Part shown: positions 16,933 to 17,283 of the stretch, piece after piece
How the letters are laid out: every line of letters starts with the position of its first letter
How positions within the stretch are numbered: position 1 is the stretch's first letter
NCBI RefSeq assembly: GCF_045037415.1
Contig: NZ_CP173438.1
Strand: one strand, 5' to 3'
DNA from: Escherichia coli
GTDB taxonomy: Bacteria; Pseudomonadota; Gammaproteobacteria; Enterobacterales; Enterobacteriaceae
Length of the DNA: 64,000 nt
Position numbers and translations under genes: made by a program
Notes under the pieces: model-generated
Database searches by the model: none
What the model was told of the DNA's origin: nothing
What the model saw: the letters and a program-made list of their open reading frames with translations, nothing else

Positions 16933-17283
16933 ATGACTCAAAACTATGAACTGATTGTGAAAGGGATCCGCAATTTTGAGAATAAAGTTACGGTAACTTT
17001 AGCGTTACGGGACAAAAAACGCTTTGACGGTGAAATTTTTGACCTGGACATCTCGCTGGACCGTGTTGAAGGTGCCGCGCTGGAGTTTTATGAGGCAGCA
17101 GCCAGAAGGAGCATCAGACAGGTCTTCCTGGATGTTGCTGCCGGGTTATGTGAAGGGGATGAGCAGTCGCCGGAAAAGCGCCCCGTAATTTTAGAGGCGC
17201 AGAATGTATGGATAACCTACAAAGGAAAGCTACCGGGAAGAATTACTGGTTCTCTGAAGACTCCTCCGGAATCACAACCTTAA
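16933..17283 (+). CDS. hypothetical protein (116 aa) between holin and endolysin
   Basis: GGAGAG RBS; lambda has no gene between S and R. Confidence 0.45.
   Translation: MTQNYELIVKGIRNFENKVTVTLALRDKKRFDGEIFDLDISLDRVEGAALEFYEAAARRSIRQVFLDVAAGLCEGDEQSPEKRPVILEAQNVWITYKGKLPGRITGSLKTPPESQP

Follow-up and report, generated by a model that had tools for sequence, protein, structure and literature searches.

The 116-codon open reading frame between the holin gene S and the endolysin gene R in the E. coli DNA studied here is almost certainly a member of the ydfR/DUF1327 family, and it is probably optional accessory cargo, carried between S and R by those lambdoid prophages of E. coli that use an S21-type holin and a SAR endolysin, rather than a part of the lysis machinery. 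We refer to the gene as ydfR, to its product as YdfR, and to the whole 64,000-nucleotide stretch of DNA that was analyzed as the window. The gene, its family and its genomic position are already known and annotated, and they are ordinary for an E. coli lambdoid prophage.

The first-pass annotation of this DNA had recognized no family for the predicted protein. This was incorrect, as a profile search placed the product in Pfam family PF07041 (DUF1327) with a score of 145.1 bits, where the cut-off is 25, and the alignment ran from residue 1 to 112 over profile positions 1-92 of 93. The product also matched PHROGs 406 and 2091, neither of which has an assigned function, and the DNA was 100% identical to the RefSeq coding sequence WP_000193280.1, annotated as "YdfR family protein". 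NCBIfam models gave no match to the product, and PADLOC defense models gave nothing at E<=0.1. Identical copies of WP_000193280.1 are present in many E. coli, including EPEC E2348/69, and 8.8 kb of the window is matched at 100% by a prophage of human isolates that also carry this protein. Of 5426 complete E. coli genomes, 4313 carried DNA related to ydfR, which occurred at 8427 places in all. When YdfR was used as a tblastn query against 50,697 phage records, every match was in an E. coli temperate or Stx-converting phage. The family is small: an exhaustive HMMER search of 1.84 billion representative proteins recovered 102 representative clusters at E<=1e-3, and none of these 102 matches provided a link to any annotated family. 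YdfR, one of the commonest E. coli prophage genes (Stx phages included), has been catalogued for years, and literature searches yielded no specific description of a gene that intervenes between S and R in cassettes of the S21 type.

In phage lambda, there is no gene between S and R. The presence of an additional ATG-initiated frame at this position, as originally annotated, was confirmed, and its neighbors were identified as holin and endolysin by matches to PF04971 and PF00959, respectively (Table 1). The holin begins with a dual-start motif, MYQMEK (Met1 and Met4), and is 79% identical to EssQ of K-12. The endolysin R, 89% identical to RrrQ of K-12, has a Gly/Ala-rich amino-terminal signal-anchor with a hydropathy peak at residues 9-27, and the triad E-x8-D-x5-T can be read from its sequence. 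The reported GGAGAG ribosome binding site is also present, at 16920-16925, and lies inside S, where it forms the final Gly-Glu codons (GGA GAG) of the holin. It is followed by the holin stop codon TAA (16926-16928) and, 4 nt beyond, by the ATG of ydfR. The leader of R is AT-rich, reads ...GATAAATATCC-ATG (17284-17355), and is devoid of a Shine-Dalgarno sequence.

Table 1. Coordinates of ydfR and its neighbors in the window. The last row lists gene pairs at other loci, with positions in those loci.
Feature	Position	Strand	Evidence
ydfR-family gene (DUF1327), 116 aa	16933..17283	+	PF07041 E 7.5e-43; phrog_406/2091; WP_000193280.1 100% identical; dN/dS 0.24-0.43
YdfR core domain, residues 1-74	16933..17154	+	AlphaFold2 pLDDT 77-92; 81% identical to K-12
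YdfR variable C-terminal tail, about residues 75-116	17155..17280	+	predicted disordered, pLDDT 46-53
S21-type class II (pin)holin S, 71 aa	16713..16928	+	PF04971 E 9e-33; RefSeq "class II holin family protein"
S-to-next-gene junction: GGAGAG, TAA, 4-nt spacer TTCA, then ATG	16920..16932	+	read directly
AT-rich spacer before R, 63 nt, without Shine-Dalgarno	17284..17346	+	read directly
SAR-type lysozyme R, 177 aa	17347..17880	+	PF00959 E 3e-24
Rz i-spanin	18179..18646	+	PF03245 E 6e-48
Rz1 o-spanin, embedded in Rz	18399-18584	+	PF06085 E 1.7e-20
DUF1327/phrog_25324 convergent pairs	L019 1501-2040 (phage Evi); L022-L026 around 3001-3550; L009 449-1001; L004 446-992		

A consensus scan of 16400-18800 did not reveal a plus-strand sigma-70-like promoter or a terminator flanking ydfR. 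Because no promoter-like site precedes the frame, and because of its position, we infer that ydfR is expressed only upon Q antitermination of the late operon, in step with translation of the holin.

Codon comparisons show that ydfR behaves as a real coding gene under purifying selection. Pairwise Nei-Gojobori dN/dS over codons 1-72 was 0.24-0.43 between the window and seven homologues (K-12, BP-4795, phiSTEC1575-Stx2k, PhiR12, Stx1_499, Evi and 2H10). On the grounds of homology and dN/dS, the idea that the frame is not a gene was rejected. It had been proposed that a frame not conserved in related prophages would speak against the gene. This objection fails because the frame is kept in every related prophage or phage examined, among them K-12 Qin, E2348/69, BP-4795, H-19B, mEp460 and 2H10. 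An embedded RNA element is not supported either, since Rfam and tRNA scans found nothing in or near the ydfR frame.

The selection data also bear on the possibility that ydfR is a functionless hitch-hiker, kept by its residence in an often-exchanged lysis module of mostly defective prophages. The narrowness of the family would fit such a view, as would the frequent truncation, fusion or frame-shifting of the family's tails, the near absence of ydfR expression in K-12, and the lack of a phenotype upon overexpression (PMC13232886). However, dN/dS remains well under 1 even when the cores compared are so diverged that dS is saturated (above 1). Moreover, conservation of the core extends to other phage lineages, where identity falls to about 25% but the Tyr-Glu pair is invariant, and the gene is retained in the inducible or plaque-forming phages BP-4795, H-19B, mEp460 and 2H10. 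We regard a functionless hitch-hiker as the least probable of the explanations considered here.

The order of holin, ydfR and lysozyme genes is shared by the window, K-12 Qin, E2348/69, BP-4795, mEp460, 2H10, Evi, PhiR12 and Stx1_499. In the Qin cryptic prophage of K-12, the order is essQ-ydfR-rrrQ-rzpQ, so that ydfR occupies the same slot as in the window. BLASTP aligned the K-12 protein (b1555, P76160; 103 aa) to the window protein with 81% identity over residues 1-74 (E 2e-46). Past residue ~74, the two tails are unrelated, and they comprise 29 residues in K-12 and 42 in the window protein. The downstream junction differs as well, with the ydfR stop overlapping the rrrQ start in K-12, whereas the window has the 63-nt spacer. 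The YdfR frames of Stx and other lambdoid phages (BP-4795 ORF47, H-19B, Stx2 phage 86, mEp460_055, 2H10) resemble the window gene in their location 4 nt past an S21-type holin gene and in the core fold. BP-4795 and phiSTEC1575 also share the 114/116-aa architecture. Unlike the window protein, BP-4795 and H-19B have a core of a second sequence type (63% identical), and 2H10, PhiR12 and Stx1_499 have longer C-terminal domains, in 2H10 and PhiR12 together with a convergent partner gene.

Structure prediction suggests that YdfR is a small soluble cytoplasmic protein, with a beta-beta-beta-alpha core of ~73 residues followed by a disordered, interchangeable tail. The AlphaFold2 model, based on a 38-sequence alignment that included distant members, has three antiparallel beta-strands (residues 5-14, 18-27 and 34-43) and a long helix (50-73). 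Tyr53-Glu54 at the start of this helix are invariant in the alignment columns throughout the family. Downstream of the core, the family members differ: some end in one of three or more alternative tails, and others (176/183-aa and larger forms) in a longer C-terminal domain that resembles a coiled coil. The 176/183-aa forms run on beyond a shared ...TPP, which corresponds to residues 110-112 of the window protein. Pfam scans of the long-form tails and of the convergent partners described below found no significant domain. Neither YdfR nor the phrog_25324 partner matched any PDB sequence, even at E<=10, and a Foldseek search of the YdfR model against PDB and BFVD gave no match at E<=1e-3.

No transmembrane segment was found in YdfR by hydropathy, and the model is that of a soluble domain. 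The maximum 19-residue Kyte-Doolittle hydropathy was 0.69, whereas S reached 1.70 and the SAR domain of R 1.74. A role of YdfR as holin or antiholin was therefore rejected, since the protein has no transmembrane segment.

The distribution of ydfR among lysis cassettes indicates that it is a passenger. DUF1327 was present in only 101 of the 434 phage records that encode the S21-type holin. In Stx2a_F403, which lacks ydfR, the endolysin gene R begins 4 nt past the holin stop, and in phage Ayreon the lysin gene likewise follows the holin gene directly. Alignment showed that the GGAGAG-TAA-NNNN-ATG junction is the same whether ydfR comes next (window, BP-4795, K-12) or R comes next (Stx2a_F403). 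The presence/absence polymorphism of ydfR thus takes the form of a clean indel flanked by conserved S and R sequences. Because ydfR is absent from most cassettes with the same holin, and because the junction is unchanged, we conclude that ydfR is an optional passenger that lysis does not require. Its dispensability for the S21-holin/SAR-endolysin type of cassette is shown by the cassettes without it. A core lysis component should be present wherever this holin/endolysin type is used, and the 101 of 434 records argue against such a role.

When present, ydfR takes the strong ribosome binding site embedded in the holin gene, and R is pushed behind the AT-rich spacer. In phages without ydfR, R inherits the holin-embedded GGAGAG. 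Since R has no Shine-Dalgarno sequence of its own in the window, the presence of ydfR may alter the ratio of R to S translation.

The first-pass annotation had suggested a lysis-associated or moron function from the position inside the cassette. Its second half is largely borne out by the presence/absence polymorphism and by homologues in tail modules (see below), both of which point to accessory, moron-like cargo. A dedicated role in lysis, on the other hand, is contradicted by the lack of a transmembrane segment, by the many cassettes without the gene, and by the lack of a growth defect when K-12 YdfR is overexpressed. Like the lambdoid morons bor and lom, ydfR is optional, polymorphic for presence and located between conserved late genes, and DUF1327 genes are found at several classic moron sites. 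Unlike these morons, ydfR is co-oriented with the late operon. Since the scan detected neither a promoter nor a terminator belonging to ydfR itself, the gene falls outside the strict definition of a moron. The convergent partner of DUF1327, where present, does look like an autonomous, moron-like unit.

Another role in lysis would be that of a cytoplasmic modulator of lysis timing. YdfR, made in concert with the holin, might bind the charged cytoplasmic C-terminal tail of the S21 pinholin, or the SAR endolysin prior to its release, and thereby delay or sharpen triggering in a manner similar to RIII of phage T4. T4 RIII is a cytoplasmic antiholin cofactor that acts on the cytoplasmic domain of the holin. 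It resembles YdfR in being a small soluble protein that lacks a transmembrane segment and is connected with lysis genes. Consistent with a timing role, ydfR directly follows the holin gene in each of the 10 loci inspected (E. coli, prophage or phage, the window among them) and uses the ribosome binding site at the holin junction, and phiSTEC1575-Stx2k keeps the holin-ydfR block although its endolysin module has been replaced. In addition, the supplement of an envelope-permeability screen lists the Keio ydfR mutant as a weak hit (PMC3879167), although this phenotype may instead reflect polarity of the cassette toward the lysozyme gene that lies downstream. Other observations are difficult to reconcile with a timing role. 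Three quarters of the phage records with the same holin are without ydfR, and distant homologues reside in tail clusters, beside unrelated holins, or without a holin nearby. The YdfR core type and the holin sequence assort independently: the BP-4795 and window holins are 96% identical but their YdfR proteins only 63%, and for K-12 and the window the values are 79% for the holin and 81% for the YdfR core. A tblastn search of the 50,697 phage records detected no sequence relation of YdfR to any T4 protein, RIII included. RIII has also been linked to RNA metabolism through S1 and RegB (PMC9409239). Taken together, we consider a function in lysis timing quite unlikely.

The interpretation of ydfR as cargo was further strengthened by the inspection of distant loci. 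Stand-alone DUF1327 homologues of 72-76 aa, 25-36% identical, are located away from the S-R slot. They were found between the lambda-like tail genes M and L (L005, L006, L007, L009), past tail gene I (L008), past Rz (L012), and as a tandem duplication upstream of a different holin gene (L010). In IMG/VR loci, they were found right after Q or after a HicAB pair. These locations show that the DUF1327 core domain travels among late-operon sites of phages. The homologues in tail clusters or adjacent to Q, which usually sit beside a convergent small gene, point to mobile cargo and not to lysis machinery.

The convergent gene, of 70-101 aa, follows DUF1327 in most of the distant loci, and also in the E. 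coli phages Evi, PhiR12_2_star, phiSTEC1575-Stx2k and 2H10. The partner genes belong to PHROGs 25324, 2572, 2411 and 10490, which have no assigned function and are mutually dissimilar. The phrog_25324 partner (~99 aa) accompanies a 72-aa DUF1327 protein in all 8 loci of its subgroup, at insertion sites that are unrelated to each other (S-R, M-L, after I, after Q, after HicAB). A minus-strand terminator hairpin (AAGCGGC...GCCGCTT and a T-run) was present in the ~25-nt gap between the two genes in both loci scanned (L019 and L022). Since the pair sits at unrelated late-operon sites of different lambdoid phages, these data suggest that it is an undescribed mobile two-gene cassette. In 2H10 and PhiR12, ~470 extra nt at the position of the spacer encode the YdfR C-terminal domain and the convergent small gene. 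According to the alignment with 2H10, the window is without these ~470 nt (long tail and partner), and it contains neither a partner gene nor a second DUF1327 copy.

These findings raise the possibility that YdfR is the orphan half of a mobile cassette, in which a late-strand DUF1327 gene faces a convergent, independently transcribed small gene that is expressed in the lysogen. YdfR would then counteract or regulate its partner during lytic growth, and the window copy, having lost the partner, would act on the partners of co-resident prophages or decay. The recurrent convergent gene, the constancy of the phrog_25324 pairing despite unrelated insertion sites, the terminator between the genes and the segment missing from the window relative to 2H10 are all in agreement with this proposal. 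However, the partners fall into at least five families without detectable mutual similarity, which argues against a specific protein-protein antidote relationship, and PADLOC defense models gave only marginal matches to the partners, none of them convincing. Furthermore, ydfR without a partner prevails in E. coli, where ydfR DNA was present in 4313 genomes and the two partner types tested in 314 and 61. As the solo form dominates and the core is nevertheless under purifying selection, the function of YdfR appears to be independent of the partner. The absence of both a partner and a second DUF1327 copy from the window also weighs against this proposal, and we judge it unlikely. A more elaborate version would make the DUF1327 core the late half of a mobile cassette of enterobacterial lambdoid phages. 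In this version, it would be a late-expressed antagonist or regulator of a convergent, self-terminated, lysogen-expressed partner, possibly via RNase E or RNA, and solo copies would be orphan antagonists directed against partner-bearing co-resident prophages. This version is very unlikely in our estimation.

The sole functional data on YdfR concern the K-12 protein and come from a 2026 study (PMC13232886). A bacterial two-hybrid screen that used RNase G as the bait yielded residues 1-72 of K-12 YdfR, and this fragment was positive with both RNase G and RNase E (PMC13232886). The full-length protein gave a two-hybrid signal with Rne 1-597, and in the short-linker fusion it was positive only with this fragment (PMC13232886). 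In addition, FLAG-tagged Rne(1-598) co-eluted with Strep-YdfR out of lysate, and DNase-resistant nucleic acid was co-purified with Strep-YdfR (PMC13232886). Since RNA co-purifies, the contact between YdfR and RNase E could be bridged by RNA. The underlying screen was broad (43 candidates), ydfR was essentially silent in K-12 under standard conditions, and when it was overexpressed, growth was unimpaired and few transcripts changed (PMC13232886).

The K-12 region recovered by two-hybrid coincides with the conserved core, over which the K-12 and window proteins are 81% identical. As the interacting region is the shared conserved core, a role connected to RNase E or RNA may be proposed for the window protein by analogy. 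The core would bind RNA, the N-terminal catalytic half of the host's RNase E (and RNase G), or both, and YdfR would thereby adjust the decay of RNA at a late stage of lytic growth, broadly in the manner of T4 Srd, without taking part in the disruption of the envelope. The acidic pI of 5.5 (mildly acidic) of the window protein is atypical of an RNA binder, and the interaction data were obtained with the K-12 allele, whose tail differs from that of the window protein. We therefore regard a late-expressed modulator of RNase E or RNA as a tentative proposal, which is rather more likely to prove wrong than right. The account as a whole, of a ydfR-family gene that is optional cargo and acts on RNase E or RNA, is the best explanation that we can offer, and we put it forward with reserve, as somewhat short of an even chance.

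T4 Srd is a possible precedent. Both Srd and YdfR are small cytoplasmic proteins of phage origin for which contact with RNase E has been reported, and Srd has been listed among the few known binders of the N-terminal half of this enzyme (PMC13232886). Srd binds RNase E and stimulates the decay of host mRNA. YdfR may work in a similar way, although few transcripts responded to its overexpression. The two proteins have no detectable sequence relation (tblastn, 50,697 phage records), and YdfR is encoded in the late operon of a temperate phage. Similarity of YdfR in sequence or fold was likewise not found to the RNase E regulators Srd, RraA/RraB, RapZ and Dip. If the link to RNase E is true, temperate lambdoid phages would carry a late-expressed modulator of host RNA decay. 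Independently of this, the comparative data (optional gene, roaming core domain, frequent convergent small gene) steer the search for a function away from lysis.

Additional features were noted in the remainder of the lysis region. A small plus-strand frame at 18004-18177, with a likely true start near 18079, has its stop 1 nt before the ATG of Rz. It encodes a strongly hydrophobic segment, ILIWLVFVIMASGYFIGQI (hydropathy 2.13), matches phrog_6632 (E 1.4e-29, no assigned function), and is not annotated by RefSeq in the identical sequence of strain THO-003. This frame looks like a better candidate than ydfR for an unrecognized membrane protein of the lysis cassette. Between R and this frame or Rz, at 17971-18003, there is a 14-bp GC-containing hairpin with A-run and T-run flanks (AAAACCCCG...CGGGGTTTT), which has the appearance of a bidirectional terminator. 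The same position between R and Rz is where Stx phages have the antirepressor gene ant inserted.

Upstream of the holin gene, at 14680-16562, a truncated DNA methyltransferase gene is fused to or overlaps with a 5'-truncated DUF6645/SASA sialate-O-acetylesterase (NanS-p-like) gene, and RefSeq annotates both as pseudogenes in identical sequence. A deletion appears to have joined two late-region cargo genes here, at the location where Stx phages carry stx and nanS-p. Directly downstream of Q, at 11220-14078, there is a defense-like island, in which a DNA cytosine methyltransferase gene on the plus strand is followed, on the other strand, by genes for a HEPN-like nuclease of the MAE_28990/MAE_18760 family and for a DUF262 protein.

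Rfam searches identified RNA elements elsewhere in the window. In the early region of the prophage, at 5082-5927, there are two tandem copies each of an isrK-like sRNA and a C4 antisense RNA, all above gathering scores, adjoining the frames 5137-5688 and 5685-6536. We take this arrangement to resemble the C4 antisense immunity of the P1/P7 type (antirepressor control). A full-length match to the IS009 RNA (218 bits) at 44265-44463 overlaps the 3' end of a frame at 43916-44506, which adjoins frames of the size of tail-fiber genes at 39988-43913.
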